A stretch of 64,000 nucleotides of DNA from an uncultured Actinomycetes bacterium (GTDB lineage Bacteria > Actinomycetota > Thermoleophilia > RBG-16-64-13): the NCBI GenBank assembly GCA_963806155.1, contig CAWDXC010000009.1, positions 198,520-262,519 on the forward strand. Direction: 5' to 3'. The notes beneath the pieces were generated by a model. It was not told the DNA's origin. It searched no databases and worked only from the letters and a program-made list of their open reading frames with translations. This document shows, piece after piece, positions 4,179-63,199 of this stretch. The translations under genes were made by a program, and so were the position numbers. Every line of letters begins with the position of its first letter. Position 1 is the first letter of the stretch.

Positions 4179-4925
4179 CTATGGTTCGAAGGCTTTCCTC
4201 ACGTCGTCGGTGACGCCCTTCTTGAAGGCTTCGAGCTTGGCTTCACCGGCCGGGGTGATATGCAACCGCCCGCCCTCGACCCGGACGTAGCCTATGACTT
4301 CTACCTCGTCGGTGAGCGCCGCTATGAGCACGGGCGCGGCCAGCGGGTAGATCTTCTCCCGGTGCGCCGAAGAAAGCTTGTCCCGCACGTCCTCCACGCC
4401 GATGCCGTCGTTCTTCCTCACCACCTCCAGAATTGCCATCTGCTTGCGGAAGTAGGGGGAGGCCTCCCCCTTCTCCGCTAGGTCGAAGGCCTCTACCCTG
4501 AAGAGAGCCGAGGTTCGAGCATCCGGGCAAATGACCATCACCTCTTTGAGGACGTCCCGCTGGGGATTGGTGGGGTAGGTGAAAGATCCCTTGGGCAGAA
4601 GGGCTTTCAGAGTGTGGGGAGGTTCCGGGATATCCTCCGGCAACGCCCGCCAGCCGGTCCCATCGTAGTCCTTCATGCTCGCGTCTCGGGCGCTGAGCGG
4701 CGCGTACCAGAAAGGAGAGTAGTAAGGCGGCTGTACGTAGCGAGGTCCGGCGTCGTACACGGCCTCGATCTTCGGCATGAGAACGCCGATCACGTGCGGG
4801 CACAGCCGGCCGTGGAACTGCTCGCCGTCGAACACCACCTCGTCCCCGATCTGGTAGCTGAAATGACAGGGGTACTTCTGCTCGTCTCCCAAAAACTCCA
4901 CCAGCGTGGCTTTAACCTGGAACAT
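4179..4925 (-). CDS. uncharacterised protein with N-terminal TIGR04076-like Cys-containing domain and ~160-aa C-terminal extension
   Basis: ORF 4179..4946; N-term MFQVKATLVEF..YPCHF..GDEVVFDG..GRLCP resembles the TIGR04076 small-protein family; paralog at 62444..63199 (~55% identity). Confidence 0.6.
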   Translation of the reverse strand: MFQVKATLVEFLGDEQKYPCHFSYQIGDEVVFDGEQFHGRLCPHVIGVLMPKIEAVYDAGPRYVQPPYYSPFWYAPLSARDASMKDYDGTGWRALPEDIPEPPHTLKALLPKGSFTYPTNPQRDVLKEVMVICPDARTSALFRVEAFDLAEKGEASPYFRKQMAILEVVRKNDGIGVEDVRDKLSSAHREKIYPLAAPVLIAALTDEVEVIGYVRVEGGRLHITPAGEAKLEAFKKGVTDDVRKAFEP

Positions 4926-5116
4926 ATCTAGCTCGCTTCCTGCCATTTAACTCGTGGCTCCGTGTTGGCTTCGCGCACAGGGCAATTCGATGTCGGCTTC
5001 GCCTGGGTGCCGCCCTGGTATCACCTCGGTCGACCCTCGTTACTTCGCCAAGTATTAGTCGCCGGAGAACGCACTAGACTGCTCCGCCGAGGAGTTGCTC
5101 GGCATGCCAGATGCGC

Positions 5117-6195
5117 TCACGCGTTAACCGAGTCTACCAATGCTTGGACGTTCTCGAACTTCGCGTCGGGCGGGACAGCGCAGCCCTGAGCCATGATATA
5201 ACCGCCCGGGCCCAACTCCGACAGCAGTCGCCTGCAGTAGGCCCTTACCTGATCGACCGTTCCCAGGGTGAGCAGGGCAGGAGGCACGTCGCCCATGAGA
5301 CACATATGCCCGTCCAAGATGCTCTTGGCCCTAAAGATGTCGGTCTTCCCGTCGAGAGTCAAGATGCACCGAGCCTTGGGCAGCTCGAGAAGGCGTTCGA
5401 TCTCCCGGTCCCAGTTGGCGTCGCAGTGAAGAATGGGGGTGCCGCCTTCCTCGGCCACGATCTCGACGAGCTCTTTCATGTAGGGCCAGACGAATGCGGT
5501 TCCACAACTTCGGGGCAAGGAACTCCGGAGATGCGCGCCAGCTACCCACCTGGTAGCCGTATGGCCCGATCGCACGCACCGTCTGGCGGGCCTCCTCCCG
5601 CCTTTCCACCATGATGACGTCCATGACGGCCTGCACCTTGTCGGGCACTTGGTATAGGTCGAGTATGAACTCCTTGACCGAACGCCCTCCGCTGAGTTGC
5701 TCGAAGGGGACGACGATATTCGGCTGCGGTGAAGGCCACGTAGCCCCGCTTCATGCACTCCCCGGCCCAGCGCGGCCCCGCCCGCATGATCGCCTGGGCG
5801 GCAGCGACCTCTTCCTGGAGATACTTGCCGATGTACCCGCCTAGCCAGGCCACTCCAGCCCATCGTCGAGGATCCTGTCGTAGTCCTCACGCTGCATCCG
5901 CATCTGCTCGTCCATTTGCCACAAGCTGTCTTCGGGCAGGTCGCGGCCGGGCAGTTTCACGGGCGTCAGCCAGATCATGCCGAGCAGTTTGGGAATGGTC
6001 GGTGGCGAACTGGATGGCGTCCACGTCCCCCAGCTTCTCCAGGGTAGCCAGAGCGGCCGCGCCGGCCACGTCACCGTCGACCGAGTAATCCGACATCTTG
6101 AGTCCCATCGTGCGAGCCGCAAAGCTGTCGAATAACAGGCAGACCGGCACACGGTCGGGAGTACCAAGCGCGACGGCAGTCTTCAGACGGGTCAT
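5117..6195 (-). pseudogene. uroporphyrinogen-decarboxylase-family (MtaA/CmuA-like) methyltransferase remnant, at least 4 frameshifts
   Basis: URO-D-like N-term (5887..6195: MTRLKTAVALGTPDRVPV), middle pieces (5841..6167, 5542..5853, 5331..5648) and C-term (5117..5890 frame: ...ILHCDANWD...MAQGCAVPP) lie in four different frames. Confidence 0.6.
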
Positions 6196-6321
6196 CCGCT
6201 CCAGGAAGAGCCGGTTAGGCGCGAAGGCGCCCGGGCTTTCTCACCGCTGTTCTCAGCCATCTCTAGAATACCCCCAGCACCTGCTTTGGCCGCATCGGTC
6301 TTATTCCTCCTTCGCTCTGAT

Positions 6322-8064
6322 TCAGTCTTGCGGAATCACGGGCAGTAGGAGGTGAGAGGGGTAAGCCGCATTGTGGAAGACCTTGTGCAGCACGGTCTTG
6401 CTGCTGCAGACATGCGGGCCGATGTACTCCACCGCGGTTTCCCCTGCGACCCCCTCGGCCAGGTCGAGGCTGGTGATCTCCAGGCAGATCCGATGTCCCG
6501 CCTTGAACATGTTCGCGGTTGACAGGATCTCGATCTCATACTCGTTCACTTCCCCGGGCATCACCGCCTGAGTCTTGTCGGGTGTCAGGTAGTGCCAGGG
6601 GCGTCCGGGTTTGGAGCGCTCCGGGTCGATGGCCCGGTAGGAGGCCTTGAGCCAACCCCGAGTCAGCTCGCGCTCCGGCAGATCCTTGGGAACCTCGCGC
6701 TCACCCATGCGGGCCGTCTGTACGGAAACGTCCGGGCCCACATCTTTGAGGATGACGATCCAGTTCGTGTCGTCCTGGTCGAGCGAGGCGTAGAGGGTGA
6801 GGGAGATGGGACCGGCGACAAGTGTGTCTTCGGACAGGGGCGCCGTCATGTAGCGAAGCCGCTCGATCGTGTTGGTCTGAGTGGGCGGCATCTGGACGAA
6901 AGCGTCCGGCGGCTCGTTGACAAAGGTATCGGTCTCCGGGAGATGACCCTTGGTGTCGAGCTTCTCCCAGCTGTGCAGGTAATAGGGGGTCCAGACCGTC
7001 TCGGGCAGGGGCCAATCCTGCCCGGTCCGCCACTTGTTCTCCCCCATCACCCAGTACCTGACCGGCGGCTCGTCCATGATGCCGGTGTCGATTCCCTTGA
7101 GCCAGTAGTCGTACCAGCGCAGGATCTCGTCGTGCCAATCGTGGAAGGGCCGCTCGCAATGGGCTGGGGGCGTGAGCAACAACTTCTTGTTCGGGGTGTC
7201 GATGCCCATGAAATGATGCTGGGCGCCCTGCCAATGCATCTTGTAGGTGTACGCACCCTCGAAGGCCCCGGTGCAGAAGGGGATCTTGATCCTGCTCAGC
7301 CGCTCCTCGGCTTTCGCCACCGCGTCGGGAGTCTCAAAGGGGAAGACAAGGGTGTAGAAGACGGCCGGGTCGCGCTGCCCCTTGAGGGTCAGGATATTGT
7401 AGAGATTCACGTACATCATGTAGTCCGGGTTGGCCATGGCCGACTGCCAGGCCTCTTCGACAGGCGGGGGAAGCTCCGGCGGCGTGTCGATGATCGTGTG
7501 GAGGCTGTTGTTCAAGCCCAGGTGGTAGAACATGGTGCCGATGACCCCGCCCGGATGCGCTTCGCGGAAGCCGATCGGCCCTCCGTACAGCCCGGTGGCG
7601 TCAAGGGGGAAGATGGCTTTCAGGGCCGGGTGCTGTTGCGCGGCCGCCTTCCATTGCTGTCCTGCGAAGCCGGACAGCCCCACCATGCCGATGTTGCCGT
7701 CGCACCAGGGCTGGGCGCAGATCCACTCGAACATGTCGTACTCGTCCCACTCGCCGCCCTCTTCGGGCATACCCTCCGACTTGTGCCCACCGCGCACCTG
7801 TCCGATGACGTGCACGTAGCCGTTGGCGACGAAACGCTTGCTGTCACCGGCTTCGATGATGCCGTACCACATGGTGGACCAAGCCGGCTGGCCGACTTTG
7901 AGGTTCTCTGCGACTTCGACCCGCTGCAGATCCTTGTTGTGCATGGCGGTGGCGTAGAGCACCGGATACCTGCCGGGCGCATCCGGCCGGTAGACATCCA
8001 CCATCAGCTTGACGCCGTCGCGCATGGGGACGGGAACGTCGTACTCCTTGATCATGCCGGGCAT
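6322..8064 (-). CDS. CocE/NonD family hydrolase (S15 X-Pro dipeptidyl-peptidase-like alpha/beta hydrolase)
   Basis: 580 aa intact ORF; GGGAGGG SD 7 nt before ATG; N-terminal region and 580-aa size typical of the CocE/NonD family; paralog at 9682..11445. Confidence 0.8.
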   Translation of the reverse strand: MPGMIKEYDVPVPMRDGVKLMVDVYRPDAPGRYPVLYATAMHNKDLQRVEVAENLKVGQPAWSTMWYGIIEAGDSKRFVANGYVHVIGQVRGGHKSEGMPEEGGEWDEYDMFEWICAQPWCDGNIGMVGLSGFAGQQWKAAAQQHPALKAIFPLDATGLYGGPIGFREAHPGGVIGTMFYHLGLNNSLHTIIDTPPELPPPVEEAWQSAMANPDYMMYVNLYNILTLKGQRDPAVFYTLVFPFETPDAVAKAEERLSRIKIPFCTGAFEGAYTYKMHWQGAQHHFMGIDTPNKKLLLTPPAHCERPFHDWHDEILRWYDYWLKGIDTGIMDEPPVRYWVMGENKWRTGQDWPLPETVWTPYYLHSWEKLDTKGHLPETDTFVNEPPDAFVQMPPTQTNTIERLRYMTAPLSEDTLVAGPISLTLYASLDQDDTNWIVILKDVGPDVSVQTARMGEREVPKDLPERELTRGWLKASYRAIDPERSKPGRPWHYLTPDKTQAVMPGEVNEYEIEILSTANMFKAGHRICLEITSLDLAEGVAGETAVEYIGPHVCSSKTVLHKVFHNAAYPSHLLLPVIPQD

Positions 8065-8117
8065 GGCAATCCCTCCCTATCGAGTACAGGGGTATCTGAG
8101 AGTCACCTGGCCGCCGC

Positions 8118-8432
8118 CTAGCCGGCGGCGGCTTCTGCTTTGATCGCCACGAGCAATCCGGAGGCCCGTATCTCGTCATAGATATGGCCGAAGGCGGGCA
8201 CCGTCGCCAGGGCACCGGTTGAGTGAGCGCTCACGAAGCAGATGGGAAGCTTCTTCGCACGGAAGGCGGCCAGAAGATCCTGGATGCGATCGATCATGCC
8301 CGACTCCCGGATGGCGACGATCGCGTCGGAGCCCCAGTTCGGGATCATGCTCTGCTCACCGGCGAGGCCGTTCTGCATGTGCATGAGCACGAGCGCCGGT
8401 TTCCCCGGCATCTGCCATTCCTTCATCCGATG
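8118..8432 (-). CDS. isochorismatase-family (cysteine hydrolase)-like protein, possibly truncated N-terminal remnant
   Basis: 105-aa segment MKEWQMPGKPALVLMHMQNGLAGEQ... resembles the N-terminal ~100 aa of isochorismatase-like hydrolases but lacks the C-terminal ~80 aa; upstream part of ORF 8118..8777 is non-coding-like. Confidence 0.35.
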   Translation of the reverse strand, partial: HRMKEWQMPGKPALVLMHMQNGLAGEQSMIPNWGSDAIVAIRESGMIDRIQDLLAAFRAKKLPICFVSAHSTGALATVPAFGHIYDEIRASGLLVAIKAEAAAG

Positions 8433-8508
8433 AACCTCCCCTGCTGTGCTTCGTAGAATGAATCTTTGAATTCGCAGAGCAAGCCTATTAAAGTGGTGCC
8501 AGTAGTAT

Positions 8509-9399
8509 TTGTCAAGCAATACCAGCATATGTGTTACACTTGGCTCACCTGATGAGTCACTACTACAGGGAACGGCTGAATTGAGGGACACCCAGCAGGA
8601 ACTCGAGCAGAAGGATGCAGGACGAGTGGCCACTGCCCAGAACGGGGGCGGAGTCCGGGCGCTGGAGCGCGGTCTGCAACTCATCAAGTGCTTCGATATC
8701 CAGCACCCAAGCTGGCGGATCGCCGACCTCGCCAGGGAGGTGAATCTCCACAAAGCGACGACACGCAGACTGGTCAAGACGCTTGAGTCGGAGTCATTTC
8801 TTGTCCTCGATCCTGATTCCGGAGAATACCGGCTGGGTTCCGCGCTTCTCCCGGTGTCGTATGTCGTCCGCTCTCACAACGAGCTGGTCCGAGTGGCCCA
8901 CCCATTCCTCGAGCAGTTAGCCGCCCGCACGGAGGAGACAGTCGGGCTCGCCGTATGGACGAGTCGCGGCATCATGCACGTCGACCACGTGTCGACCGTC
9001 CACTTCTTCAAGCCAGTGTTGATAGCCGGCAATGTCTCGACCACGTACGGCACTACTCATAGTAAGATCCTTCTTGCCTTCGGTCCCGAAGAACGGCTGT
9101 CCAAGCTATCCATCGGCGACCGCGCTGCCAGCCTGACGCTGGCCGAAGCTGCGAGACTGCACGAGGAACTGCAGAAGGTGCGCGAGTCGGGGATCGCTTA
9201 CGACGTCGAGGAGAGAGCCAGGGGTGTCTGTGCGGTTGGCGCGCCGATCAGGGATGGCTCAGGGGAGGTCGTCGCTAGTCTCTCGGTTGTCGTTCCCACC
9301 GACCGCTTCGGGCCGACGGAGCGCGAGTCGGCGACGGATGCGATCAGGGAAACGGCGATAGCCATATCTCGCGAGCTGGGGTTCAAGGAGGAGAGATAG
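8509..9399 (+). CDS. IclR family transcriptional regulator
   Basis: HTH (IADLAREVNLHKATTRRLVKTL) plus IclR effector domain; only ATG in frame is 8509, true start may be internal. Confidence 0.8.
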   Translation: MSSNTSICVTLGSPDESLLQGTAELRDTQQELEQKDAGRVATAQNGGGVRALERGLQLIKCFDIQHPSWRIADLAREVNLHKATTRRLVKTLESESFLVLDPDSGEYRLGSALLPVSYVVRSHNELVRVAHPFLEQLAARTEETVGLAVWTSRGIMHVDHVSTVHFFKPVLIAGNVSTTYGTTHSKILLAFGPEERLSKLSIGDRAASLTLAEAARLHEELQKVRESGIAYDVEERARGVCAVGAPIRDGSGEVVASLSVVVPTDRFGPTERESATDAIRETAIAISRELGFKEER

Positions 9400-9681
9400 C
9401 GGATCGTCGGACTATCAGTCCGGTGGCTCCATCGGACTGATAGTGAGATAGGGCCCGTTTCCAGCCGTGACAGCTAGTGACGGGCCCTGACGTTTCCCTG
9501 CAAAACTCGGTCTTGCCCAGATCCGTCCTGACTGTTCGTGACGCTCCGTCTTCAGCGGTTCGTTTGCAGAATGTTTGCAGAATGCCAGCATGAAATGGCC
9601 CCTCGCGACCCGATTTCCTGGCCGCCAGAGCGCCTCCCGACCGAGCGACTATCTCTGGGCAAGGGAGAGCCGGTTTTCTGC

Positions 9682-11445
9682 TCACCACTCCGGGATTAAC
9701 GGCAACAGCAGATGCGACGGGTACTCAGCATTGTGGTAGACCTTGTGCAGCACCGTCTTGCTCGAGCAGACGTGGTTGGGGATGTACTCCACGGTGGTCT
9801 CCCCGCCCACACCCTCGGCCAGGTCGAGGCAGGTGATGTCAAGACAGATGCGGTGTCCCTCCTTGAACAGGTTGGCAGTGGAGAGGATCTCGATCTGATA
9901 CTCGTTCACTTCGCCGGGGACTACCGGCTGGATCCTCTCAGGGCTGAGGTAATGCCAGGGCTTCCAGGGCTTCGTGCGCTCCGGATCGAGCGCCTGGCGG
10001 GAAGCCTTGAGCCAGCCGCGGGTCAACTCCCGTTCGAGCAGGTCGGCTGGGACCTCGCGCTCGCCCATGCGGGCGGTCTGGACGGAGACGTCGGGGCCCA
10101 CGTCCTTGAGGATGACGATCCAGTTGGTGTCGTCCTGGTCGAGTTCGGCGTATAGGGTAAGCGAGATAGGGCCGATCACCAGGGTGTCTTCGGCCAGAGG
10201 CTCGGTCATATAGCGGAGCCGCTCGATCTTGTTAGTTTGGGTAGGGGGCATCTGCACAAAGGCATCGGGAGGCTCGTTCACGAAGGTCTGCGTCACCGGC
10301 AGATGTCCCTTGGTGTCGAGCTTCTCCCAGCTGTGCAGGTAGTACTTGGTCCACTGCGTCTCGGGGAGCGGCCAGGCGGTCCCTTCGCGCCATTTGTTGG
10401 CGCCCATGACCCAGGTCCTGACCGCGGGCTCGTCGGCCACACCGTTGTCGATCCCCTTGAGCCAGTGGTCATACCAGCGGATGATCTCGTCGTGCCACTG
10501 GTGAAAGGGCCGTTCGGCATGGGCCGGCGGAGTGACGAACAGCCTCTTGTGGGACGCGTCGATGCCCGCAAAGAAGTTCTGGGCCCCCTGCCAGTGCATT
10601 TTGTAGGTGTAAGCACCCGCGAAAGCCCCGGTGGTGAAGGGGATCTTGATTCTCTTGAACATCTCCTCCGTGCGCTCGATCGTGCCCGGGCGCTCGAAGG
10701 GGAAGAGCAGCGGGTAGAACATGCCCGCGTCCCGCTGCCCGCGCAGGGTTAGGATGTTGTACAGGTTCACGTACATCATGTAGTCAGGGTTCTGCATGGC
10801 CTCCTGCCAGGCGGCCTCCACCGGCGGGGTAAGCTCGGGAGGCGTACCGATGTGCGTGTGCAGGCTGTTGTAGAGGCCGATGTGGTAGGGCATGGTCTGG
10901 ATGACTCCGCCCGGGTGCTGGTCGCGGAAGCCTTCCAGACCTCCGTAGCAGCCTCCCGCATCCAGGGGGAAGATGGCCTTGAGGGCCGGGTGCCCCTGGG
11001 CGGCCGCCCGCCACTGCTCGGCTGCGAAGGCCGAGAGTCCCACCATGCCGATGCTACCGTCACACCAGGGCTGGTCCACGATCCACTCCATGGTGTCGTA
11101 GTGGTCCCAGTCGTCGTTGGTGAACAGGTCGCCTTCGCTCTTGTGGCCGCCCCGTACCTGGCCGATGACGTGCACGTAGCCGTTGGCCACAAACCGCTTG
11201 GAGTCACCCCCTTCGATGATGCCGTACCACTGGGTCGACCAGGCCGGCTGTCCGACCTTGAGGTTTTCGGCCACCTCCACCCGCTGCAGGTCTTTGTTGT
11301 GCAGGGCGCACGTGTAGAGGACTGGGTACTTCCCCGGCGCGTCCGGGCGGTAGACGTCGACGCGCACGGTGACGCCGTCCCGCATGGTTACGGGAAGGTC
11401 ATATTCCTTGATCATCGTGTCGTAGTAGGTGTGGTCGTCTGACAT
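9682..11445 (-). CDS. CocE/NonD family hydrolase (paralog)
   Basis: ~70% identical to 6322..8064 protein; GGAG SD favours ATG 11445 (MSDDH..) over 11457. Confidence 0.8.
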   Translation of the reverse strand: MSDDHTYYDTMIKEYDLPVTMRDGVTVRVDVYRPDAPGKYPVLYTCALHNKDLQRVEVAENLKVGQPAWSTQWYGIIEGGDSKRFVANGYVHVIGQVRGGHKSEGDLFTNDDWDHYDTMEWIVDQPWCDGSIGMVGLSAFAAEQWRAAAQGHPALKAIFPLDAGGCYGGLEGFRDQHPGGVIQTMPYHIGLYNSLHTHIGTPPELTPPVEAAWQEAMQNPDYMMYVNLYNILTLRGQRDAGMFYPLLFPFERPGTIERTEEMFKRIKIPFTTGAFAGAYTYKMHWQGAQNFFAGIDASHKRLFVTPPAHAERPFHQWHDEIIRWYDHWLKGIDNGVADEPAVRTWVMGANKWREGTAWPLPETQWTKYYLHSWEKLDTKGHLPVTQTFVNEPPDAFVQMPPTQTNKIERLRYMTEPLAEDTLVIGPISLTLYAELDQDDTNWIVILKDVGPDVSVQTARMGEREVPADLLERELTRGWLKASRQALDPERTKPWKPWHYLSPERIQPVVPGEVNEYQIEILSTANLFKEGHRICLDITCLDLAEGVGGETTVEYIPNHVCSSKTVLHKVYHNAEYPSHLLLPLIPEW

Positions 11446-11663
11446 TAGGTGCTCCATTCCTCACTGGGTCTAGTACTGCGCTTGCTAGGGCCGGGCCCGG
11501 GTGGCGTTCGACGGGCACATCCTTGGTCGAGACGAGCATGTCCCCATCCTTCTCCTGTAGCAGTATCCACTTGAGCCAGGCGGCGTCATCGCGCTCCGGC
11601 TGGTCCTCGCGCAGGCGTCAGCCCCCGCTCTCTATCCACGGCGATATGCCTTAGAAGTCCCCG

Positions 11664-53553: not shown

Positions 53554-54384
53554 ATGTCGCGCTATGCCCTGCTCATAGACATGGAGAAATGCAACGGCTG
53601 CTACGCCTGCTTCATGGCCTGTCGCGACGAGCACTGCGGGAACGATCACCTGCCTTACTCGGCGGCCCAGCCCTATTCGGGCCACTTCTGGATGCGCATC
53701 ATCGAACGCGAACGCGGGTCGTATCCCAGGGTCAAGGCCGCCTACATCAAGGTCCCCTGCATGCACTGCGATGACGCTCCCTGTGTCACCCAGTATCCGG
53801 ACCAAGTCTACAAGCGCCCGGACGGCATCGTCATCATCGATCCGGTCAAAGCCAAAGGGGCGAAGGAGATCCTGGATTCCTGCCCCTACCGGGTGATCTT
53901 CTGGAACGAGGAGACCGATCTGCCGCAGAAATGCACCATGTGCGCGCATCTTCTCGACGAGGGTTGGGAAGAGCCCCGGTGCGTGGAAGTATGTCCCACC
54001 AAGGCCCTTCTCTTCGGCGACCTGGACGACCTGGAGAGCGAGGTAGCCAAACGTCTAGCTGAAGGTGAGGCTGAGGTCTTCCACCCCGAATACGGCCTCA
54101 AGGGGAGCGTCCGGTACCTGGGCCTGCCCAAACGGTTCATCGCCGGCAGCCTGGTCTTCGGCGATACCGACAAATGTGCGGGCGATGTCACCGTGACCCT
54201 GGCCGGCGACGGGGAGAAGAGGCAGGCCACGAGCAACGGCTTCGGGGATTTCGAGTTCGAGGGAGTGGACAAGGACAAGGAATACATCCTGGAGGTCAAG
54301 CACCCAGGCTACCGGGACAGGCAGCTCGCCGTGTACACACAGATCGACAAATACCTAGGCGACATAGTGTTGGAGAAGATCTAG
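53554..54384 (+). CDS. 4Fe-4S ferredoxin beta subunit with C-terminal beta-sandwich domain (beta3)
   Basis: GGGAGG SD; CNGCYACFMACRDEHCG etc.; 3 nt downstream of alpha3. Confidence 0.8.
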   Translation: MSRYALLIDMEKCNGCYACFMACRDEHCGNDHLPYSAAQPYSGHFWMRIIERERGSYPRVKAAYIKVPCMHCDDAPCVTQYPDQVYKRPDGIVIIDPVKAKGAKEILDSCPYRVIFWNEETDLPQKCTMCAHLLDEGWEEPRCVEVCPTKALLFGDLDDLESEVAKRLAEGEAEVFHPEYGLKGSVRYLGLPKRFIAGSLVFGDTDKCAGDVTVTLAGDGEKRQATSNGFGDFEFEGVDKDKEYILEVKHPGYRDRQLAVYTQIDKYLGDIVLEKI

Positions 54385-54431: not shown

Positions 54432-56945
54432 GTGGTGGAAGAGGTCCTGACCCAGTGCACTTCAGGCGGAGCGGTCCAGGTCCATGTCGAGGATGGGGTG
54501 ATCACCAAGATCCGGCCGCTCGTCTTCGACGAGACAGATGCCCCTGGGTGGACGCTCGAGGCCAGAGGTAGAGAGTTCAGTCCTCCGCGCAAGACAACGG
54601 TGATGCCGTACGTCGTCGCGGAGAGGAGCCGCATCTACTCGGAGAACAGGATCAAGTATCCCTGCAAGCGAGTGGATTTCGATCCCAAGGGGGAACGGAA
54701 CCCCCAGAACAGAGGGAAGTCCGCCTACGAGCGCATAAGCTGGGACGAAGCGTTCGACATAGTCGCGGGCGAGATGCAGCGAGTGCGCGAGATCTACGGG
54801 CCGGCCGCCATAGCTGCCTCCACCGGATCGCACCACAACTGGGGTCTGCTGTTCTACAAGATGGGACCCTTCGGCCGCTTCTTCAACATGCTCGGCTACA
54901 CCGAGATCGTGGACAACCCGGACAGCTGGGAGGGTTGGCACTGGGGCGCCATCCACACCTGGGGCTACTGGTGGCGGCTCGGGGTCTCGGACAACTACGA
55001 CATGCTCGAGGAGGCCCTCAAGAACACCGACCAGGTGGTCATGTGGTCGGTGGACCCGAATACAACCACCGGCTATCCGGGCCAGGATTCGCTCCTGTGG
55101 CGGATATGGTTGAAACAACTGGGCATCAAGCTGATCTTCATCGATCCCTGGTGCAACTTCACGGCCGGTATGCTGGCGGACAAATGGTTCGCCCCGCGGC
55201 CGGGCACGGACGCGGCTCTGGCTCAGGCCATCGCCTACGTGTGGATCAAAGAGGGCTCCTACGACAAGTGGTTCGTCGAGAACCGGACCGTGGGCTTCCC
55301 GGAATTCGAGAAGCACATCCTGGGCGAGCAAGACGGGATAGCCAAGACGCCGGAGTGGGCCGCGGAGATAACCGGCATCCCGGCCCGCGACATACAGGCG
55401 CTCGCTCGCAGTTGGGCCTCGAAGCGGACCATGCTTGGGTGTGGGGCTATGGTCGGGCTCGGGGGCGCGTGCCGGGGAGCGTACGCGACCGAATGGGCCC
55501 GGATGATGGTGCTCCTCATCTCGATGCAGGGCTTGGGCAAACCGGGTGTCAACGTCTGGGGCGGGTGCGGAATGGGCCAGCCCGCCGACTACTCCTTCCG
55601 GTTCCCCGGCTATTCCTCAGCCGGTTGGGACGCCTTCAACCTCGTCTCCGAGAAGAGAGCGATCAATAACGTGTCCCAGAAGATCTGCCGTCTGCTCCTG
55701 CCCGAGGCCATCCTCGCTCCACCGGTGGAGTGGGATGGGGAGGGCTTCTGCGGGTTTGCGCTCGACCAGCAGTTCACTCACCACACCTACCCCGAACCCG
55801 GGACCACCGAGATCAAGCTGCTCTACCGGCACGGGGGCTCCTACATCTCCACCATGACCGACACCAGCCGGTTCGTCCGGATGTATCAGAGTCCCAAGCT
55901 CGAGTGCGTGGTCAGCCAGGATTGCCACTGGCAGAGTGAGACCAAGTTCGCCGACGTGATCCTGCCGGCCAGCACCAATTTCGAGCAGGAGGACATCTGT
56001 GAGTGGGGGAATCCCGGTGGATACGCGGAAAACAAGGGTGGAGAGAACTTCCGCGTCGTCATCAGTCAGAAGAAGTGCATCGAGCCCCTCTGGGAATCGA
56101 AGCCGGACTGGGACATCTACTGCGAACTGGCCAAACGCTTGGGCTTCCTCGAGGACTATACAGAGGGCAATACGCGGGAGGATTGGATCAGAAAGCTCTT
56201 CGACTCCACCTCGCTGCCGGAGCACGTGAGCTACGAGGACTTCAAGAAGAAGGGCTACTTCGTGGTGCCTCCGCCTTCGGGCGACTACAAGCGCACCGTC
56301 TCCAACCGCTGGTATTACGAGGGCCGCAAGTGCGACGTCCCCGACTCGTTCAATCCTACGATCAGGGGCGAGGGCACGGACAAGCTGGGCACCTACAGCG
56401 GCAAGATCGAGTTCGTCTCGCAGAGTCTGCTGGAGCACTTCCCGGATGACGAAGAACGGCCGCCGCTGCCCCGGTACATCCCCAGCTGGGAAGGGTACGA
56501 CAGCGCGCTCGCCAAGAAGTACCCGCTGCAGCTCCTCACGACACACGCCCGCTTCTCGTTCCATACGCAATACGACAACAAGACCCCGTGGCTGGACGAG
56601 ATCCCGGTGCACCGCGTCATCAAGGACGGGTACGCTTATCTTCCGGTCCGGATCCATCCTTCGGATGCCGCGCCGCGCAACATCCGCCACGGAGACATCG
56701 TGAAGCTCTTCAACGACAGGGGTTCCGTGCTGTGCATCGCTCAACTCACCGAGCGGGTCAAGCCCGGCGTCCTTCACACCTACCAGGCGGGAGCCAAGTA
56801 CGATCCGCTCGAGCCGGGCAAGGCCGGAAGCACCGACAAGGGTGGCTGCGTCAACATACTGACCCCCGGGCGGATGATCTCGAAGCACGCGCCAGGCATG
56901 GCCAACAACTCCTGCCTGGTGGAAGTGGCGAGGAGTGATGTCTAG
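54432..56945 (+). CDS. molybdopterin oxidoreductase large subunit, transhydroxylase-like (alpha4, ~50% identical to alpha3)
   Basis: 837 aa; AAGGAG SD; only 47 bp after beta3, so probably co-transcribed. Confidence 0.8.
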   Translation: MVEEVLTQCTSGGAVQVHVEDGVITKIRPLVFDETDAPGWTLEARGREFSPPRKTTVMPYVVAERSRIYSENRIKYPCKRVDFDPKGERNPQNRGKSAYERISWDEAFDIVAGEMQRVREIYGPAAIAASTGSHHNWGLLFYKMGPFGRFFNMLGYTEIVDNPDSWEGWHWGAIHTWGYWWRLGVSDNYDMLEEALKNTDQVVMWSVDPNTTTGYPGQDSLLWRIWLKQLGIKLIFIDPWCNFTAGMLADKWFAPRPGTDAALAQAIAYVWIKEGSYDKWFVENRTVGFPEFEKHILGEQDGIAKTPEWAAEITGIPARDIQALARSWASKRTMLGCGAMVGLGGACRGAYATEWARMMVLLISMQGLGKPGVNVWGGCGMGQPADYSFRFPGYSSAGWDAFNLVSEKRAINNVSQKICRLLLPEAILAPPVEWDGEGFCGFALDQQFTHHTYPEPGTTEIKLLYRHGGSYISTMTDTSRFVRMYQSPKLECVVSQDCHWQSETKFADVILPASTNFEQEDICEWGNPGGYAENKGGENFRVVISQKKCIEPLWESKPDWDIYCELAKRLGFLEDYTEGNTREDWIRKLFDSTSLPEHVSYEDFKKKGYFVVPPPSGDYKRTVSNRWYYEGRKCDVPDSFNPTIRGEGTDKLGTYSGKIEFVSQSLLEHFPDDEERPPLPRYIPSWEGYDSALAKKYPLQLLTTHARFSFHTQYDNKTPWLDEIPVHRVIKDGYAYLPVRIHPSDAAPRNIRHGDIVKLFNDRGSVLCIAQLTERVKPGVLHTYQAGAKYDPLEPGKAGSTDKGGCVNILTPGRMISKHAPGMANNSCLVEVARSDV

Positions 56946-57776
56946 ATGACCAGATACGGCATGGTAGTCGATATCGTCAAGTGCAGTGGCTGTTACAACT
57001 GCTTTCTAGCCTGCAAGGACGAGCACTGCGGCCATGATCAGCCGGGGTACGCCGCCCCTCAGCCGATGACCGGACACTCCTGGATGCGGCTGGTGGAGAC
57101 TGAGCGAGGCTCGTATCCAAAGGTCAAGGTCGCCTACACGGCCGTCCCCTGCATGCACTGCCAGGAAGCCACCTGTCTCGAGAAGGCCGAAGGCGGAGCG
57201 GTCTATCGCCGGGCCGACGGCATCGTCATGATCGACCCGGTGAAAGCGAAAGGGCAGAAGCAGCTGGTCTCTTCCTGCCCCTACCGGGTCATCTACTGGA
57301 ACGAAGAGCTAGACCTGCCGCAGAAGTGCACGTTCTGTGCCCATCTCCTCGATGCCGGCTGGAAAGAGCCCCGGTGCGTGGAGCTATGTCCCGCCGGCGC
57401 TCTGACCTTCGGGGATCTGGACGATCCCGAGAGCGAAGTGGCGAAATTGGTCTCCGGGCAGAGGACGGAGGCCCTACATCCGGAGTTCGGGCTGAAGGAG
57501 AACGTCGTCTACGTCAACCTGCCCAAGAAGTTCATAGCCGGGACCGTGGCGTTCGGGGATACGGACGAATGCGCCCCCGGGGTGACCGTCACCGTGGGCA
57601 TTGACGGCCGGCAGCAGACGGCCATGACGGACGAATTCGGCGATTTCGAGTTCGAAGGTCTGGCCGAGGGGCAGGACTACACCGTGATCCTTGCCGCGGA
57701 CGGATACCGTTCCCAGGAATTGAACGTGAAGACACTGAGGGACATCTACCTGGGAGTCATAACGCTCGAGAAGTGA
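56946..57776 (+). CDS. 4Fe-4S ferredoxin beta subunit with C-terminal beta-sandwich domain (beta4)
   Basis: ATG directly after alpha4 TAG; same Cys pattern. Confidence 0.8.
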   Translation: MTRYGMVVDIVKCSGCYNCFLACKDEHCGHDQPGYAAPQPMTGHSWMRLVETERGSYPKVKVAYTAVPCMHCQEATCLEKAEGGAVYRRADGIVMIDPVKAKGQKQLVSSCPYRVIYWNEELDLPQKCTFCAHLLDAGWKEPRCVELCPAGALTFGDLDDPESEVAKLVSGQRTEALHPEFGLKENVVYVNLPKKFIAGTVAFGDTDECAPGVTVTVGIDGRQQTAMTDEFGDFEFEGLAEGQDYTVILAADGYRSQELNVKTLRDIYLGVITLEK

Positions 57777-57969
57777 TAACGAGCTGATGGTGGCCCTCCC
57801 CCAGCCAGGCCCGGCCAAGGGTCGGGTGTGGCGGCGGGAGGGCCCCACCATCCGGTTTGAACCGCCCTGCCTCCCTCGTCCGCCAAGCCAGAAGCCGGCC
57901 GCCCCTCCGAACGCTCGAAGAGTTCCGGAGGGGCGGCCGCTGGGGGGGCGCTGGAAACCCGGTTTCCTG

Positions 57970-59446
57970 TTAGTAGGTAAGCGGCTGAAGAGTCCCATCC
58001 AGCACGACGATATCGGGGTCGGTGCTGAAGACGAGCAGCTTGTCGATGGGCCATTTGCCCTCTGTCGCCTTGACCCACTGGCCGCAGGCCTGCGGCGGGC
58101 TGCAGCCGTTGATGAACGGATGATGGGTCATGTCCTTCACCGGCGCCGTGAAGTCGATCTGACCTAGACTCGTGTCCAGCTTCGTCGCACCGATGGCGGA
58201 CGGCGATCCCCGCCTTGTCGTCGACGTTGGTGACGCGTTTGAACACGTCGGCCGCCCATTCGAAGAGGACGAGGATGATCACGGCCTCGCTATACTGGCT
58301 GCCGCTGAAGGCTTCGTACTCGTCCGCGATCTGCTGACAGTTCATCCCCGTCAAAGAGTCGACGAACTTCTGGCGCGGAGTCCAGGTGCCGGCGCTGGAG
58401 AGGTTGTAGCCGATATCGCCCATGGAGAGCACGCCCTCCGGGAAGATCAGGCCTTTGTGACCGATAGCCACCACCGGCTGGAATGCCTGCTGATGGGACT
58501 GCGTCCAGAAGTTGGTGAAATCGGGCGTGAGCATGACCGCGAGCAACAGCTCACATCCCGCCTTCTTGATCGCGGTGATCTGGGCTGTGTAGTCCTCAGC
58601 CCCCGGGGTGTAGAGATCGGTCATCACCACCTGATAACCGGCCTGCTCGAGGATGGGCGGCCCCCATTGGGCCCAGTTGTTGCCGTCCACATCGTTGGCG
58701 AGCACGAGGCCGACGATCTTGTTGCTCGGGACCTGCGGGAGAAGCCCGGTGTAGTTGACCGTGGTGAGCACGTCGTCGAAGGCATAGGTATAGGTCCATT
58801 TGAAGCCCTCTGCCGGCATCTTCCTACCCACGGTGAACGCGTGCACCTCGGTCCAGTTGGAGATCAACGGGCATCCCATCGATTCGGCGACATCACCGGC
58901 CGGGTTCACGGTATCGGGGGTGACCGCCGCCATGACGAGGTCGACCTTGGTGTTCTGGATGAGGTCGCCGGTGACCTGCGCCGCCCGGTTCGAATCGGAC
59001 TGGGTATCCACCAGACTGACCTCAAAGGAGTGCATCATCTTGTCGCCGAGGACGAGGCCCTCACCGATAGCATCCTCGAAATGCTTCTGCGCCCATTTGC
59101 CCGCGGCTGCGAACGGCGCCAGCGGACCGGTGATGGGTACGACATAGCCCAGCTTGATCGGCCGGCCGACCTCTGGTCCGGCGCTCACGGTGGTCGTGGA
59201 CGCGGGGGCCGTAGTGGTAGTGGACGCAGGAGCCGTGGTGGTGGTGCTCGCCGGAGCGGTCGTGGTTGTTACTTCCTCTTCGCCGCAGGATGCGAGGAAG
59301 GTGCCCAACCCTCCGCCGATCCCGATAGCGCCGCCCGCCACGGCGGCAAGCCTGAGAAACTCGCGGCGACTCACCGGTCTCGTGCCCGTAGGCTCTTCGA
59401 TTCCTTCGCGGTCGTGTTGGTCGTCAGATCTGTCGCGCTCGTTCAC
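57970..59446 (-). pseudogene. ABC transporter substrate-binding lipoprotein, PBP1 family, paralog 5, frameshift near 58215
   Basis: N-terminal 400 aa in ORF 57746..59446 frame; conserved C-terminus (...KLDTSLGQIDFTAPV...LQPLTY) found in another frame ending at TAA 57970; 21-bp tandem repeats encode (TTTAPAS)x3. Confidence 0.65.
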
Positions 59447-59552: not shown

Positions 59553-60491
59553 TCAGCCCTCGAGGATCGGCGGCAGCGGCGGTGCGTCTGTCGCCAGGCG
59601 GTCGATCAGTTCGTTGTAACGACTCATCCGCGAATCAATGTCTATCTCCCCCCTTCTTGCCGCCTGAACGGCTAGGAACAACCACAGGTGCGTCTTCAGC
59701 AGGTCCTTGTGGCTGTACTTCTTGTCGGAGAACATGCGAAAGATCGTCTGCTCGTAAGCACCCAAGAGGCTATGGGCGACAAGCTCGTCGGGGACCGCGG
59801 GTGGCTTCGCGCCTCTCGCCGAGGTGTCGGCGAAATCTCTGGTAATGCGCTCGATCACGCCTTCGAGAGCTTCCTCGATGGGTTTGCGCAGTTCGCTATC
59901 GTCGTGTGTCCTCTCCACCCGGACAAGGGCGAGGCCCGACGAGCCCAGATCGAAGACATGAAGGCTTGCGAATGCCAGCCAAAGCAGTCTCTCGGCGGGG
60001 TCCTCCGTCGAGTCGCGTTTCGAGTCCCCATACGTGAGGCTCCAGGCCATCATCACCGAGACGCATTCGGCAAGAAGTCGCCGTTTGCTGGGAAAATGGC
60101 CGTAGAAGAGGCTTGCCGTTATCCCGAGCTTCTTCATGATCGTAGTCACGTGGGTGCTCTTGTAGCCTTTGGTGGTGAACTCCGCCACGGCCACCGCGAG
60201 GATGCGGTTGTGGACCCGCTGGTACTCCTGCGCGACCAGATCGACTCCGGCTTCATTGGCGCGATGGACCCGGGGCTCCAGTTCGGTCTCGATCTCGTCG
60301 AGAGACAGGCCGGCCTCCTTGAGCTCCCCGATCTTCTTGAGGATCTCCGCGTGCTCCTCGGTGTAGAGCGATCGGCTGGCGGCGGTCTTCTGAGGCAGGG
60401 GAAGCAGCCCCTGCCTCAAGTAATAGTGGATGGTGGTCCGCGGCACCCCCGTGGCCCGTTCGAGCTCCCCGATGGAAAGGACTTTGACCAC
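59553..60491 (-). CDS. MerR-HTH / TetR-like fusion transcriptional regulator, paralog 3
   Basis: GTG start with AGGAG SD, immediately downstream of the AOR stop; LSIGELERATGVPRTTIHYYLRQGLLP. Confidence 0.7.
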   Translation of the reverse strand: MVKVLSIGELERATGVPRTTIHYYLRQGLLPLPQKTAASRSLYTEEHAEILKKIGELKEAGLSLDEIETELEPRVHRANEAGVDLVAQEYQRVHNRILAVAVAEFTTKGYKSTHVTTIMKKLGITASLFYGHFPSKRRLLAECVSVMMAWSLTYGDSKRDSTEDPAERLLWLAFASLHVFDLGSSGLALVRVERTHDDSELRKPIEEALEGVIERITRDFADTSARGAKPPAVPDELVAHSLLGAYEQTIFRMFSDKKYSHKDLLKTHLWLFLAVQAARRGEIDIDSRMSRYNELIDRLATDAPPLPPILEG

Positions 60492-60499
60492 GCTCGCTC

Positions 60500-62410
60500 C
60501 TACGGCATCGCCGACGCCACGTCTTGCAGTCCGAGCGAGCGCAGGGTCTCCTCTTTGGGGATCCCCGTCTCCTCGTCCCACCCGCGCAGCTGATAGTACT
60601 CCTTGAGCATCTCCGTGAACCTCGCCTTGTCGAGCCGGTTGCCGGCCATGTCGACCACGGCGTCCCCTGGGCCGGGGACCAGCATCCCGTGCGTGCCGGA
60701 CCCACCCCAAGGCTTGGTGAAGTTGTATTCCAGAGGATAGTCCGCGGCCGGGACCTCGCGACCTTCCCGGATCAATATCGCCCGCTGGAGATTGGCGATG
60801 ATCTCTGCGCATCTTTCGAGCTCCTCGGCCGGACGTCCGGTGACCGCCGAATAGAGCTTCGCTTCCAGATCGGGGTCTCCGACGTGATCGGGAGTGACGA
60901 AGGAGTAGATGATGGGCCAGGTGAAATCGCATAGGCCCAGGCTGTCCATTAGATAGACGCGGTTCTGGATGAGCTTGGCCGCCAGCGCCTTGCCCTCGTA
61001 CGTGTTCAGGGCCCCCGCCTCCTCACTTCCCCAGAAAGCCTTGGCGATGTTGCGGAATTCCCTGTTCGTGATCGGAGTGCTGCCGGGGTCCAGCTGGTTG
61101 AGGGTCCAGGGGACCAGCGCGAAACCCGTGTCGTGCAGGAGCGGCTGGTGGACCCGAGGCTCCATGTAGTAGAGCAGGGAATGCACGATGTTGAGCCGGG
61201 GCGGTTGCAGCTCGAACTGGCCGATAGGCGCGACTTCCTCGCCCATGAGCGCACGAGCCACCGGTGACACTTCCTCCATCTTGGCAACTCTGGCCATACC
61301 TTCCGCCAGCAGGTCCCCGAAACCCTCGCGATGGGCGACCGCATGGAGGAGCTTCTCCAGGAACTCCTGGGTACCGATCTCGGCCAGGGGCAGGCCGGTC
61401 TCGGCCTCGGTCAGCGCCCCCGCCTTGTGGCACGCGTAGAGCCAGTTGATCATGCTTCGCAGTTCGAAGGTGTCGATGCAATAGTCGTTGGCCAGATCGG
61501 GCGCGTTGAAGAAGGTGTCCACCGGCTCGTCATCCCGCCCATACATCCAGGGCAGGTAGTACTCCATGGTCTGGCAGTGGCGCATTCCCTCGAGCCGCTT
61601 GTCATATCTGTATACATTGCGGATGCACTTGGCCCCGCACAGGTAACAGCCTCCCTTTCCGATGACCTCCACCACCTGTGCGTGACCGGTGCCGAGCACA
61701 TCGGGACCGATCGCCAGATGAAGCCTTTGGTTGATCTTCACTGTGTGACGGTTGAGCTCTCTGAGCCTCTCGGGATCCGCCGCGGAGACCCTCTGCGAAC
61801 CCCTGACGGCGATGCCTTTGAGGTTCTTGGAGCCCATCACGGCGCCAAAACCGCAGGAGAGGGCCGATTCGTGGGAGGCATAGGCCGTCGCCGTGCGGAC
61901 CAGGTTCTCTCCCGAGACCCCGATGGCGATGAACTTGGCGTCTGGGCCGTGGAGCTCCTGCAGCCGTTGTCCCGTCTTGAAGGCGCCCAGGCCCCACAGG
62001 CCGGCAGCCTCCCGGACCTCCACCTTTCCGTCGTCGATCCAGAGATACACAGGACTCGCGGCCTTGCCCGTCACGACCAACCCGTCGTAGCCGGCCTTCT
62101 TGATCTCGGCCCCCACGTACCCGGCGATGTTGCCGTAGCAATAGCTCTCCGGCAGCGCGCCGGGTGACTTCGCGACTACACATACCACCGTGGCTGCCTG
62201 AGCCCGCGAGGCCACCAGGGGGCCGGTCATGAAGATCAGCGGGTTTTCCGGGTCGAACGGCTTGATCCCGGGGTCCGTCATCTCCCAGTAGAGCCGAGCC
62301 GCGATCCCGCGGCCGCCGACGTAGTCCTCGATGTACGGCTCAGTGGGCGATTCCCGGGTCTCTGACGTACCAAGGTCGACGAAGAGGATCTTCCCCATCC
62401 ATCCGTCCAT
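60500..62410 (-). CDS. aldehyde:ferredoxin oxidoreductase (tungsten/molybdopterin AOR family)
   Basis: N-terminal MDGWMGKILFVDLG...GGRG AOR signature; 636 aa; Cys-containing Fe-S region GKGGCYLCGAKC. Confidence 0.85.
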   Translation of the reverse strand: MDGWMGKILFVDLGTSETRESPTEPYIEDYVGGRGIAARLYWEMTDPGIKPFDPENPLIFMTGPLVASRAQAATVVCVVAKSPGALPESYCYGNIAGYVGAEIKKAGYDGLVVTGKAASPVYLWIDDGKVEVREAAGLWGLGAFKTGQRLQELHGPDAKFIAIGVSGENLVRTATAYASHESALSCGFGAVMGSKNLKGIAVRGSQRVSAADPERLRELNRHTVKINQRLHLAIGPDVLGTGHAQVVEVIGKGGCYLCGAKCIRNVYRYDKRLEGMRHCQTMEYYLPWMYGRDDEPVDTFFNAPDLANDYCIDTFELRSMINWLYACHKAGALTEAETGLPLAEIGTQEFLEKLLHAVAHREGFGDLLAEGMARVAKMEEVSPVARALMGEEVAPIGQFELQPPRLNIVHSLLYYMEPRVHQPLLHDTGFALVPWTLNQLDPGSTPITNREFRNIAKAFWGSEEAGALNTYEGKALAAKLIQNRVYLMDSLGLCDFTWPIIYSFVTPDHVGDPDLEAKLYSAVTGRPAEELERCAEIIANLQRAILIREGREVPAADYPLEYNFTKPWGGSGTHGMLVPGPGDAVVDMAGNRLDKARFTEMLKEYYQLRGWDEETGIPKEETLRSLGLQDVASAMP

Positions 62411-62443
62411 ACCAGCAACCTCCCCTGGCCGCGGCCGCGCCGA

Positions 62444-63199
62444 CTAGTCGATGTACTGCTCGAAGGCCTCCAGATCTGCCGCCGGTAATCCTTCCCTAAA
62501 AGTCTTAAGCTTGGCTTCACCCTTGGGTGTAATGGAGGTGACTCCGTCGACGGTCTGCACGTAGCCCATAAGTTCAAGCTCTTCCCTCAGAACGCGGACC
62601 ATCTGGGTACCCAGCGGAGGATAGATGCCTTCTATCTCCTCCTTCGCGAAGGTATCAAGGATCTCGTCCGACGCTACCCCTCCCCTCGTGGCGAGCTTCT
62701 TGAGGATGGCCATCTCCCTTCTGAAGTAAGGAGTGTCGTAGCCCTTCTCGCTGAGGTCGAACGCCTCGAGCTTCAGGAGCATCGAGGTCCTCGTATCGGG
62801 GCAGATAACGGTCGGCTCACTCTGAAGATTCTCTCTTTCGCTTGGCGGCCAAGCAAAGACCTCGGGATTGGTGAGATTGGCCATATCGAAGGGAGGAGGG
62901 ACTACCGTCTTGAGCACGTTCCTGAAACCAAGCCCGTCGTACTTCTTCATTTCGTCGTCATAGACGCTGAGTGAGCAGTACCAGAAGGGATAATAGGAAA
63001 TCCACTCCACGTACCTTGGCCCGGCCTGGTGAAGGGCCTCGACCTTGGGGACTATCCTGCTCCACACATCCGGGCACAGTCTCCCGTGATAGCTCTCACC
63101 ATCGAAGATGACTTCATCGCCCACCTTATGCTTGAAATGACAGGGATAGACTTCCTCATTGCCCAAGAAAGCGACGACGGTGGCTTTGACCTGAAACAC
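62444..63199 (-). CDS. TIGR04076-like domain protein (paralog of 4179..4925)
   Basis: MFQVKATVVAF...YPCHF...GRLCP; 33 bp upstream of AOR, so likely same operon. Confidence 0.6.
   Translation of the reverse strand: MFQVKATVVAFLGNEEVYPCHFKHKVGDEVIFDGESYHGRLCPDVWSRIVPKVEALHQAGPRYVEWISYYPFWYCSLSVYDDEMKKYDGLGFRNVLKTVVPPPFDMANLTNPEVFAWPPSERENLQSEPTVICPDTRTSMLLKLEAFDLSEKGYDTPYFRREMAILKKLATRGGVASDEILDTFAKEEIEGIYPPLGTQMVRVLREELELMGYVQTVDGVTSITPKGEAKLKTFREGLPAADLEAFEQYID

Follow-up and report, generated by a model that had tools for sequence, protein, structure and literature searches.

To our knowledge, neither a dedicated chaperone for cofactor insertion nor a dedicated accessory subunit is on record for the single-subunit tungsten aldehyde:ferredoxin oxidoreductases (AORs), enzymes of interest for the biocatalytic reduction of carboxylic acids. 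Elsewhere, aor operons carry the putative tungsten-cofactor maturation genes aorD and aorE (PMC6365974); those of Aromatoleum aromaticum are small accessory genes in a tungsten AOR operon whose products are absent from the purified enzyme and are thought to mature its cofactor (PMC6365974), and extra electron-transfer subunits, AorA/C, occur in bacterial AORs (PMC6365974). For molybdenum hydroxylases the chaperones of the molybdenum cofactor (Moco) are the XdhC/PaoD/CoxF proteins (Pfam XdhC_CoxI, PF02625), in which a conserved cysteine has been proposed to act as a Moco ligand or as a sulfur carrier (PMC2997495). TIGR04076 (NCBIfam) comprises uncharacterised Cys-containing proteins of ~90 amino acids (aa); our literature search found no experimental work on them, TIGR04076 being mentioned in two papers only, each time as annotation. 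Here we describe a window of 64,000 nucleotides (nt), the whole stretch of DNA that was analysed, from an uncultured Actinomycetes bacterium (contig CAWDXC010000009.1, positions 198,520 to 262,519), which encodes two proteins that join a TIGR04076 core to a winged helix. We call this type of gene and protein the TIGR04076-winged-helix family (hereafter the family) and its two representatives in the window copy A and copy B; L numbers are labels of compared loci. The genes first in question, including the AOR gene next to copy B, are the following.

4179..4925, minus strand: copy A, an intact open reading frame (ORF) of 248 aa with the architecture of copy B and Tyr in place of His24
62444..63199, minus strand: copy B, an intact ORF of 251 aa with a GTG start and the ribosome-binding site GAAGGAGGGA
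62411..62443, minus strand: spacer of 33 nt between copy B and the AOR gene, with a ribosome-binding site, GGGGAGG, read from the sequence
60500..62410, minus strand: AOR of the tungstopterin family, 636 aa (Pfam AFOR_N 1e-60, AFOR_C 3.5e-52)

A first-pass annotation of the window had drawn attention to two related proteins at the positions of copies A and B, and each is encoded there by an intact ORF on the minus strand. The ATG of copy A at 4925 agrees with the start of its homologues (MFQVKAT); a longer ORF extends to 4946, and no signal peptide was found in the product. Orthologues of copy A are present in L045 (81%) and L042 (78%), and a sequence identical to copy B exists in public collections. 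The two copies are 46% identical across all 247 aligned residues (E 3e-84), and their paralogy therefore spans the whole protein: the N-terminal module of ~90 aa that the annotation had described as common to both is indeed shared, but the sharing is not restricted to it. The proposed relation to TIGR04076 was borne out by profile comparison. With the NCBIfam hidden Markov model, copy B scores 42.5 bits, above the cut-off of 33, and copy A scores 32.0 bits, 1 bit under it, the match covering only profile positions 1-66 of 91, as one contiguous stretch. Alignment of the family with canonical TIGR04076 members by hhalign gave a probability of 99.6% (E 2e-24), whereas a Pfam search of the two copies returned nothing significant. 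Copies A and B are thus true paralogues within a widespread family.

Proteins of this architecture form 525 clusters at 90% identity, mostly of 248-252 aa; at 50% identity the family is compact, with 161 representatives that are mostly fragments. The architecture is carried by 79 loci in species-representative genomes, and its hosts are Actinomycetota, Chloroflexota, Desulfobacterota, Acidobacteriota, Bathyarchaeia and one cultured organism, Neomoorella sulfitireducens. The closest relatives are metagenome-assembled genomes (MAGs) of Actinomycetes and Thermoleophilia (Actinomycetota), several genomes hold two to three copies, and identity within the family across phyla is 50-56%. NCBI or JGI already names many members 'TIGR04076 family protein', so that the architecture, put forward as novel by the annotation, is familiar to the databases; as far as we found, this widespread variant with its insertion and winged helix has nevertheless no description in the literature. 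Apparent domain fusions were discarded: in L063 a masked run of N creates the artefact of a 604-aa protein, and representative-library matches of odd length proved to be fragments or frameshifts. The contexts of canonical 90-aa TIGR04076 genes were heterogeneous and uninformative for function.

The domain anatomy of the family was derived from comparison with a canonical set of six TIGR04076 proteins of 83-111 aa and two short natural variants, labelled P0199 and P0220, and from an alignment of 35 full-length homologues. The canonical core is placed by hhalign on residues 1-62 and ~115-150 in the numbering of copy B, which parses as follows.

63014..63199, minus strand: residues 1-62, first part of the TIGR04076 core, assigned from hhalign, invariant residues and secondary structure
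62858..63013, minus strand: residues 63-114, insertion of ~52 aa within the core (AGPRY..YYPFWY..KKYDGLGF..)
62744..62857, minus strand: residues 115-152, end of the TIGR04076 core, with FxWPP, C133-P-D135-x-R137 and a long strand, 138-149 ('EAFDL')
62447..62743, minus strand: residues 153-251, winged helix-turn-helix domain

The first part of the core holds a beta-strand (beta1), a YPCH loop with C20, H21 and H24, the sequence GDEVIFDG, and C42-P at the start of a helix that runs from 43 to 62. The insertion appears as a gap in the hhalign alignment, is absent from the canonical 90-aa members and is strongly conserved in the family. Residues 115-152 then match the canonical 'FPW...CPD..vvFei', and the remaining residues comprise a YFRRQMAIL helix, an IYP loop, an LxEELELMGY helix, a wing and two C-terminal helices. 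The family thus has the same core as TIGR04076, with the invariant C...H, GDE, FDG, C(P) and CPD motifs, but is 250 aa long instead of ~90, with the insertion lying between the helix and the last strand. Neither copy is a ~90-aa single-domain protein matched from end to end, the core being split by 52 aa and followed by an appended winged helix of 95 aa. The annotation had instead seen a novel C-terminal extension of ~160 aa, with ICPD.RTS..EAFDL as part of a separate domain. That motif is the last beta-strand of the core, and the rest of the supposed extension consists of the insertion (~63-114) and a winged helix (~153-251), a known fold; a novel C-terminal domain is ruled out by the hhalign alignment with the canonical proteins and by P0199 and P0220, in which core and winged helix occur without the insertion. 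This corrected parse is new here and is now available for a widespread uncharacterised family.

The 35 homologues share 36 invariant and 36 nearly invariant columns, among them C20, H21, C42, C133, D135 and R137, and across phyla 29% of columns reach a conservation of at least 90%. Counted in 72 species-level sequences, C20, C42, C133, D28, D33 and D135 are invariant (72/72) and H21 is present in 68. Two of the three invariant cysteines fall in C-P motifs. The TIGR04076 motif set (C-x4-H, GDE, FDG, G.iC, CPD) is complete in copy B; copy A has Tyr (Y24) for the canonical His, as it also falls just short of the profile cut-off, but keeps H21. An AlphaFold2 model of copy B built on the homologue alignment forms one globule (predicted local distance difference test score, pLDDT, 94.4; predicted template-modelling score, pTM, 0.86), its elements being a long strand (2-13), short strands (29-32 and 37-38), a helix (43-62), mixed structure (63-129), a second long strand (138-149) and a helical/winged C-terminal domain (153-250). 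When residues 1-152 were modelled alone, pLDDT was 77 and that of the insertion fell from >90 to 48-77. Since confidence in the insertion is lower without the winged helix, the models suggest that the insertion packs onto that domain.

As the annotation had noted, copy B lies directly upstream of the AOR gene and is co-oriented with it: 33 nt separate its stop codon from the AOR ATG. The translated AOR shows the CxxCxxxC...C cluster motif, and the short spacer with its ribosome-binding site points, on sequence grounds, to operonic coupling of the two genes. To place this arrangement we compared the loci of the family, in which gene calls are simple ORF picks and which are phylogenetically non-independent. 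AOR is the commonest single neighbour of the family, directly adjacent in ~15 of the 79 species-level loci; the order is family gene, then AOR, in 13 of these ~15, with gaps of 3-130 nt. The AOR-adjacent loci belong to at least five clades of the protein tree, to four phyla (they are drawn from Actinomycetota, Chloroflexia, Dehalococcoidia and Desulfobacterota) and to two AOR subtypes. A reverse search, in which metagenome contigs were scanned with the AOR of the window, gave 80 loci. Among those with adequate flanks, a family gene is adjacent to 8 of the 22 AORs that are at least 48% identical to that of the window, and to none of the 34 more distant ones (Fisher p=2e-4). In this clade the identity of the AOR and that of the upstream family gene co-vary (r=0.83, the pairs not being independent). 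The adjacency is therefore genuine, recurrent and specific to one AOR clade. The broader claim of conserved synteny with oxidoreductases holds for this AOR link and does not hold as a general rule, many members lying beside hydrolases, SDRs, transporters or housekeeping genes.

In one set of metagenomic lineages (L097-L106 and L095) the AOR gene is flanked by two diverged family paralogues, ~35% identical to each other. The upstream form is ~256 aa long, and the downstream form, of ~210-220 aa, lacks the last two helices; both are retained with their Cys motifs while the AOR diverges to 71%. The arrangement in L103 is an example.

L103, 3058-3831: family gene
L103, 3983-5914: AOR
L103, ~6058-6714: family gene

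Such a flanking pair looks like subunits or partners. This AOR-clade-specific and sometimes paired synteny has, like the domain parse, emerged from the present comparison.

What kind of protein might accompany an AOR in this way? The only neighbours of the core among solved structures are the N-terminal domains of XdhC. The order beta-beta-beta-helix-...-Cys-strand is similar in both, with Cys at two equivalent places: in a manual consensus line-up, the GGC-E and CGG motifs of XdhC fall at C42-P and C133-P-D. Stand-alone XdhC_CoxI proteins of ~105 aa exist, comparable to the 90-aa TIGR04076 proteins, and the genes of both families adjoin those of pterin-dependent oxidoreductases. The family differs in having an extra Cys/His loop and an appended winged helix and in lacking the XdhC_C domain (PF13478); moreover, XdhC serves members of the xanthine-oxidase family rather than AOR, and its gene is usually placed after the structural genes. 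We take the likeness, also new here, to be a model-based, fold-level resemblance, homology not being demonstrated. In L086 (the same locus as L008), genes for XdhC, a MobA-like NTP_transf_3 protein, YqeC and FdhD lie at 5245-9538, directly upstream of a family gene followed by two AOR genes. No xanthine-oxidase-family enzyme is encoded within 10 kb, which hints that the maturation factors of this locus serve AOR. Other pterin-dependent enzymes, the AthL-like molybdoenzymes, are neighbours of the family in ~8 further loci.

Taken together, these results lead us to favour, tentatively and in the knowledge that it may well prove wrong, the possibility that the family is an accessory, non-catalytic partner of the co-transcribed AOR that holds a metal-containing cofactor, in its most specific form by an XdhC-like handling of tungsten- or molybdenum-pterin. 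Copies A and B would be cytoplasmic, single-globule proteins in two parts. The core would carry a site formed by Cys20, Cys42 and Cys133 with His21, His24 and Asp135, enlarged by the 52-aa insertion, and the winged helix would pack on the insertion as a structural or docking module and not as a DNA reader. Copy B, co-transcribed with the tungsten AOR, would hold the cofactor in its Cys-rich core (tungsten- or molybdenum-pterin most plausibly, an iron-sulfur (Fe-S) or other metal centre possibly) and would stabilise it or pass it to apo-AOR, as XdhC and PaoD do for molybdenum hydroxylases; the partners of paralogues such as copy A would be other enzymes from the same catabolic islands. We infer the binding of a metal or cofactor, the physical interaction with AOR and the role in maturation. 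A redox partner, chaperone or cofactor-insertion factor, the class of function offered by the annotation, is still the best class of explanation, and the XdhC fold neighbours add an argument to it. The aorD/aorE genes offer a precedent, but they are MoaD-like, of another fold and family, and we saw no relation between them and TIGR04076.

Several observations weigh against this reading. The XdhC fold match is limited to ~65 residues, and the model in which they lie has a pLDDT of 77. Sequence homology to XdhC found no support: copies A and B have no Pfam match to XdhC_CoxI, and hhalign against PaoD and against an alignment of 28 XdhC_CoxI proteins gives a probability of 0.1-0.2%. The Rossmann-like XdhC_C domain is absent, and the winged helix stands in its C-terminal place. 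Fourteen of the 22 AORs of the window's clade lack a family gene in cis; their neighbours are heterogeneous and include no substitute accessory gene. The main weakness is that most members have no pterin enzyme nearby, any such enzyme being found within 8 kb in only ~30% of loci. CocE/NonD hydrolases, SDRs, SnoaL_4 and URO-D-like proteins, TRAP, ABC and MFS transporters and a class-V aminotransferase recur as neighbours and need no pterin or redox partner, and the CocE/NonD hydrolases and SDRs need no cofactor insertion either. Members from Dehalococcoidia sit in a housekeeping-looking context (rpe, a small Cys protein, TlpA, CcdA), as do those from Acidobacteriota (a GlgC-like gene). Finally, Moco biosynthesis or maturation genes were found near members only in L008/L086, apart from an FdhD homologue in L073.

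In a stronger form, the family would be the missing dedicated partner of one tungsten-AOR clade, either an XdhC-like, Cys-based carrier or stabiliser of tungsten-pterin or a new small subunit, sometimes present as an alpha/beta pair flanking the AOR. We consider this form unlikely, but were it true it would provide the first function for the large TIGR04076 family and an evolutionary link to the XdhC chaperones, and the partner model in general would give single-subunit tungsten AORs their first dedicated accessory factor. A Cys-rich protein of the copy B type is a concrete, testable candidate for such a factor, and we regard the finding overall as a sound lead of moderate interest.

Of the other explanations, the one that survives best is that the family is an electron-transfer partner or small subunit, in which the three invariant cysteines with His or Asp bind an Fe-S cluster, the winged helix docks, and electrons are shuttled between AOR (or the flavo-, Fe-S and molybdenum enzymes of the islands) and the redox pool. 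Invariant cysteines in C-P motifs, with an invariant Asp adjacent, would suit such a role, as would the paired paralogues that flank AOR and the precedent of AorA/C. AOR requires an acceptor of the ferredoxin type, which the unit formed by copy B and AOR does not encode; yet this AOR has a normal [4Fe-4S] motif, and the enzyme usually uses a generic ferredoxin. Neighbourhoods of the family are rich in redox proteins (AOR; AthL-like enzymes with Fe-S beta subunits; FAD_binding_2/4; CCG; OYE with Pyr_redox_2; nitroreductase-Fer4), with FAD- and OYE-type oxidoreductases recurring, but many other neighbours (SDRs, CocE/NonD hydrolases, transporters, housekeeping genes) need no such partner. The proteins themselves argue against it: copies A and B show no match to Fer4 or Fer2 and no recognisable Fe-S motif or family, their cysteines, at 20, 42 and 133, are scattered instead of clustered, and 250 aa with a large conserved charged surface are unlike a simple carrier. 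We judge electron transfer to be improbable, though worth keeping in mind.

The winged helix raises a further possibility, that the family is a one-component transcription factor whose Cys/His core senses metal, redox state or a phenolic ligand and whose PadR/MarR-like domain binds adjacent catabolic operators. FNR and Rrf2 are familiar cases of a winged helix combined with an Fe-S or Cys sensor, several paralogues occur per genome, each beside a different catabolic cluster, and variable neighbourhoods suit a local regulator. Copy B also seems to have a promoter region of its own. This region and the separate regulator gene after AOR lie as follows.

63200..63460, minus strand: region of 261 nt upstream of copy B, with a GC-rich hairpin, followed by an AT-richer stretch that L001 shares; likely the promoter region of the unit formed by copy B and AOR
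59553..60500, minus strand: fusion regulator with MerR_1 and TetR_N domains (Pfam), starting at the AOR stop codon

The winged helix-turn-helix fold is present in residues ~153-251, but its details do not favour DNA binding. The putative recognition helix is hydrophobic and acidic (consensus SPVMVQVLVEELELMGY): its exposed positions are mostly V, P, A or E, the family conserves E206, E207 and E209, and conserved Lys or Arg residues are almost absent; in copy A, where it reads AAPVLIAALTDEVEVIGY, no polar candidate residues are left. The net charge of the domain is negative in most members. No helix-turn-helix family of Pfam or NCBIfam (PadR, MarR and others) matches at E<=1, the weak Pfam matches being limited to S19e (14.7 bits, E 0.025, gathering threshold 29.4) and fvmX5 (PF20003, E 0.24). 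For residues 158-240, sequence comparison detects ribosomal eS19 and no other family (profile E 5e-4 against PDB chains), with the common pattern YF.R..aIL..L ... LE.lGYV ... lT.kG; the score is below the Pfam threshold, however, the context is here bacterial and non-ribosomal, and the winged helix is fused to a Cys-rich domain. The similarity is a remote one only. By sequence tests the family belongs to none of XdhC, PadR/MarR and S19e. Unlike in PadR/MarR regulators, the winged helix is C-terminal and, in the model (pTM 0.86), apparently fused into one globule with the sensor-like part, the insertion losing confidence without it.

The genomic evidence points the same way. The family gene often lies mid-operon, 10-60 nt from enzyme genes on either side; two paralogues flank AOR in some lineages; and separate IclR or MerR-TetR regulators are frequent in the same clusters. 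The MerR_1-TetR_N gene of the window, which has an unusual architecture with two helix-turn-helix domains and is kept after AOR in L001 and L002, is a separate candidate regulator of the unit formed by copy B and AOR. Upstream of copies A and B we found no conserved operator palindrome but only a GC hairpin after the preceding gene; the hairpin (63400-63439, upstream of copy B and just after the Fe-S beta subunit gene described below) is an 18-nt inverted repeat, GGCGGCGGCGGCGGTCCC / GGGAACGCCGCCGCCCCC, terminator-like but with no T run, and an Rfam search of this region found no riboswitch or known RNA. The cross-phylum identity of the family would also be unusually high for a one-component regulator. 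We therefore prefer an accessory partner, because the helix is acidic, the domain is net negative, no helix-turn-helix family or palindrome is found and the protein forms a single globule, and because mid-operon position, flanking pairs and high conservation across phyla fit a partner protein better. A regulatory role is decidedly unlikely, and annotating proteins of this family as transcription factors on fold alone is unsafe.

Even more doubtful is a catalytic role in polyphenol or aromatic-acid catabolism, by which the family would be a metal-dependent (Cys3-His/Asp) enzyme for a lyase, isomerase or hydratase-type step that travels with CocE/NonD, URO-D-like, SnoaL_4, SDR, AthL-like and AOR genes. 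Its very high conservation extends to invariant charged residues (D28, D33, D88, D135, R137, D148, R160, E207 and K230), family genes are embedded in catabolic operons behind IclR regulators, and the window itself brings together, as one island, five AthL-like systems, two CocE/NonD genes, one URO-D-like gene and AOR. Set against this, canonical members are only ~90 aa long and occur in unrelated contexts, the fold resembles that of no enzyme, the clades from Dehalococcoidia and Acidobacteriota have housekeeping genes around them, and no single pathway is common to all contexts.

That the family is a mere passenger, a frequent rider of horizontally transferred catabolic islands whose adjacency to AOR reflects shared ancestry of one operon, would accord with the heterogeneous neighbourhoods, its absence beside most AORs of the clade and the demonstrably accidental adjacency to a PQQ dehydrogenase (see below), but is very improbable given that four phyla and two AOR subtypes show one gene order with short spacers, and given the significant excess beside one AOR clade and the retention of both flanking paralogues under divergence.

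The remaining genes near copies A and B in the window are the following.

2872..4155, minus strand: GSDH/PQQ-type sugar dehydrogenase (Pfam GSDH 1.4e-88), downstream of copy A and co-oriented with it
5117..6195, minus strand: URO-D-like gene upstream of copy A, split by an apparent frameshift into ORFs 5887-6195 and 5117-5890
6322..8064, minus strand: CocE/NonD hydrolase (Pfam Peptidase_S15 and PepX_C)
63461..64000, minus strand: Fe-S beta subunit of an AthL-like molybdoenzyme with a CarboxypepD_reg C-terminal domain (Pfam), upstream of copy B and cut by the end of the window

The annotation had placed the other copy beside a PQQ dehydrogenase, and copy A does lie just upstream of the GSDH/PQQ-type gene; the adjacency is, however, absent from its closest relatives, L045 and L042, and in L045 a CocE/NonD gene intervenes. 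Well inside its listed ORF the dehydrogenase carries a lipoprotein-type signal (LLLLAPAC; …LLLLAPACGSGG). Its true start is probably not the GTG at 4155 but ~80 nt downstream, and the signal indicates an extracytoplasmic protein, unlike copy A, which has none. We rejected a functional tie between the two on both grounds: the closest orthologous loci do not keep the adjacency, and the dehydrogenase is a lipoprotein.

On the other side of copy A, the Pfam match to URO-D is confined to the ORF at 5117-5890, and tblastn with the URO-D-like protein of L019 covers 5132-5593 only; URO-D-like genes recur near family members. The CocE/NonD hydrolase is a recurrent neighbour of the A-type subfamily, being adjacent in L004, L042, L044, L045 and L175. 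Two CocE/NonD paralogues of the window, at 6322-8064 and 9682-11457 (both minus strand), flank an IclR regulator at 8509-9399 (plus strand). Frameshift-like genes also occur elsewhere in the window: an ABC ATPase (1101-2070, plus strand) continues in another frame at 1591-2070, and the C-terminus of a solute-binding protein (57746-59446, minus strand) looks out of frame. Assembly indel errors are as likely a cause of these as pseudogenes, the closest relatives being MAGs assembled into very long contigs.

A separate observation concerns the Dehalococcoidia loci L049-L075, where a conserved Cys-rich protein of 103-114 aa (CKECPWYKSC...EGCPVF) is encoded convergently to the family gene (in L075, for example, at 4173-4493, minus strand) and is followed by TlpA-like and CcdA-like thiol-disulfide genes.

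For the truncated Fe-S beta subunit upstream of copy B, L001 holds a full orthologue of 275 aa, preceded by an AthL-like alpha subunit of 881 aa. Four AthL-like (pyrogallol-hydroxytransferase-like) molybdopterin oxidoreductases are encoded within the window, at 27839-30541, 41531-44179, 51038-54384 and 54432-57776 (plus strand), and each of the last two is followed by an Fe-S beta subunit with a CarboxypepD_reg domain. So unusually dense an AthL-like island is suggestive of polyphenol catabolism.

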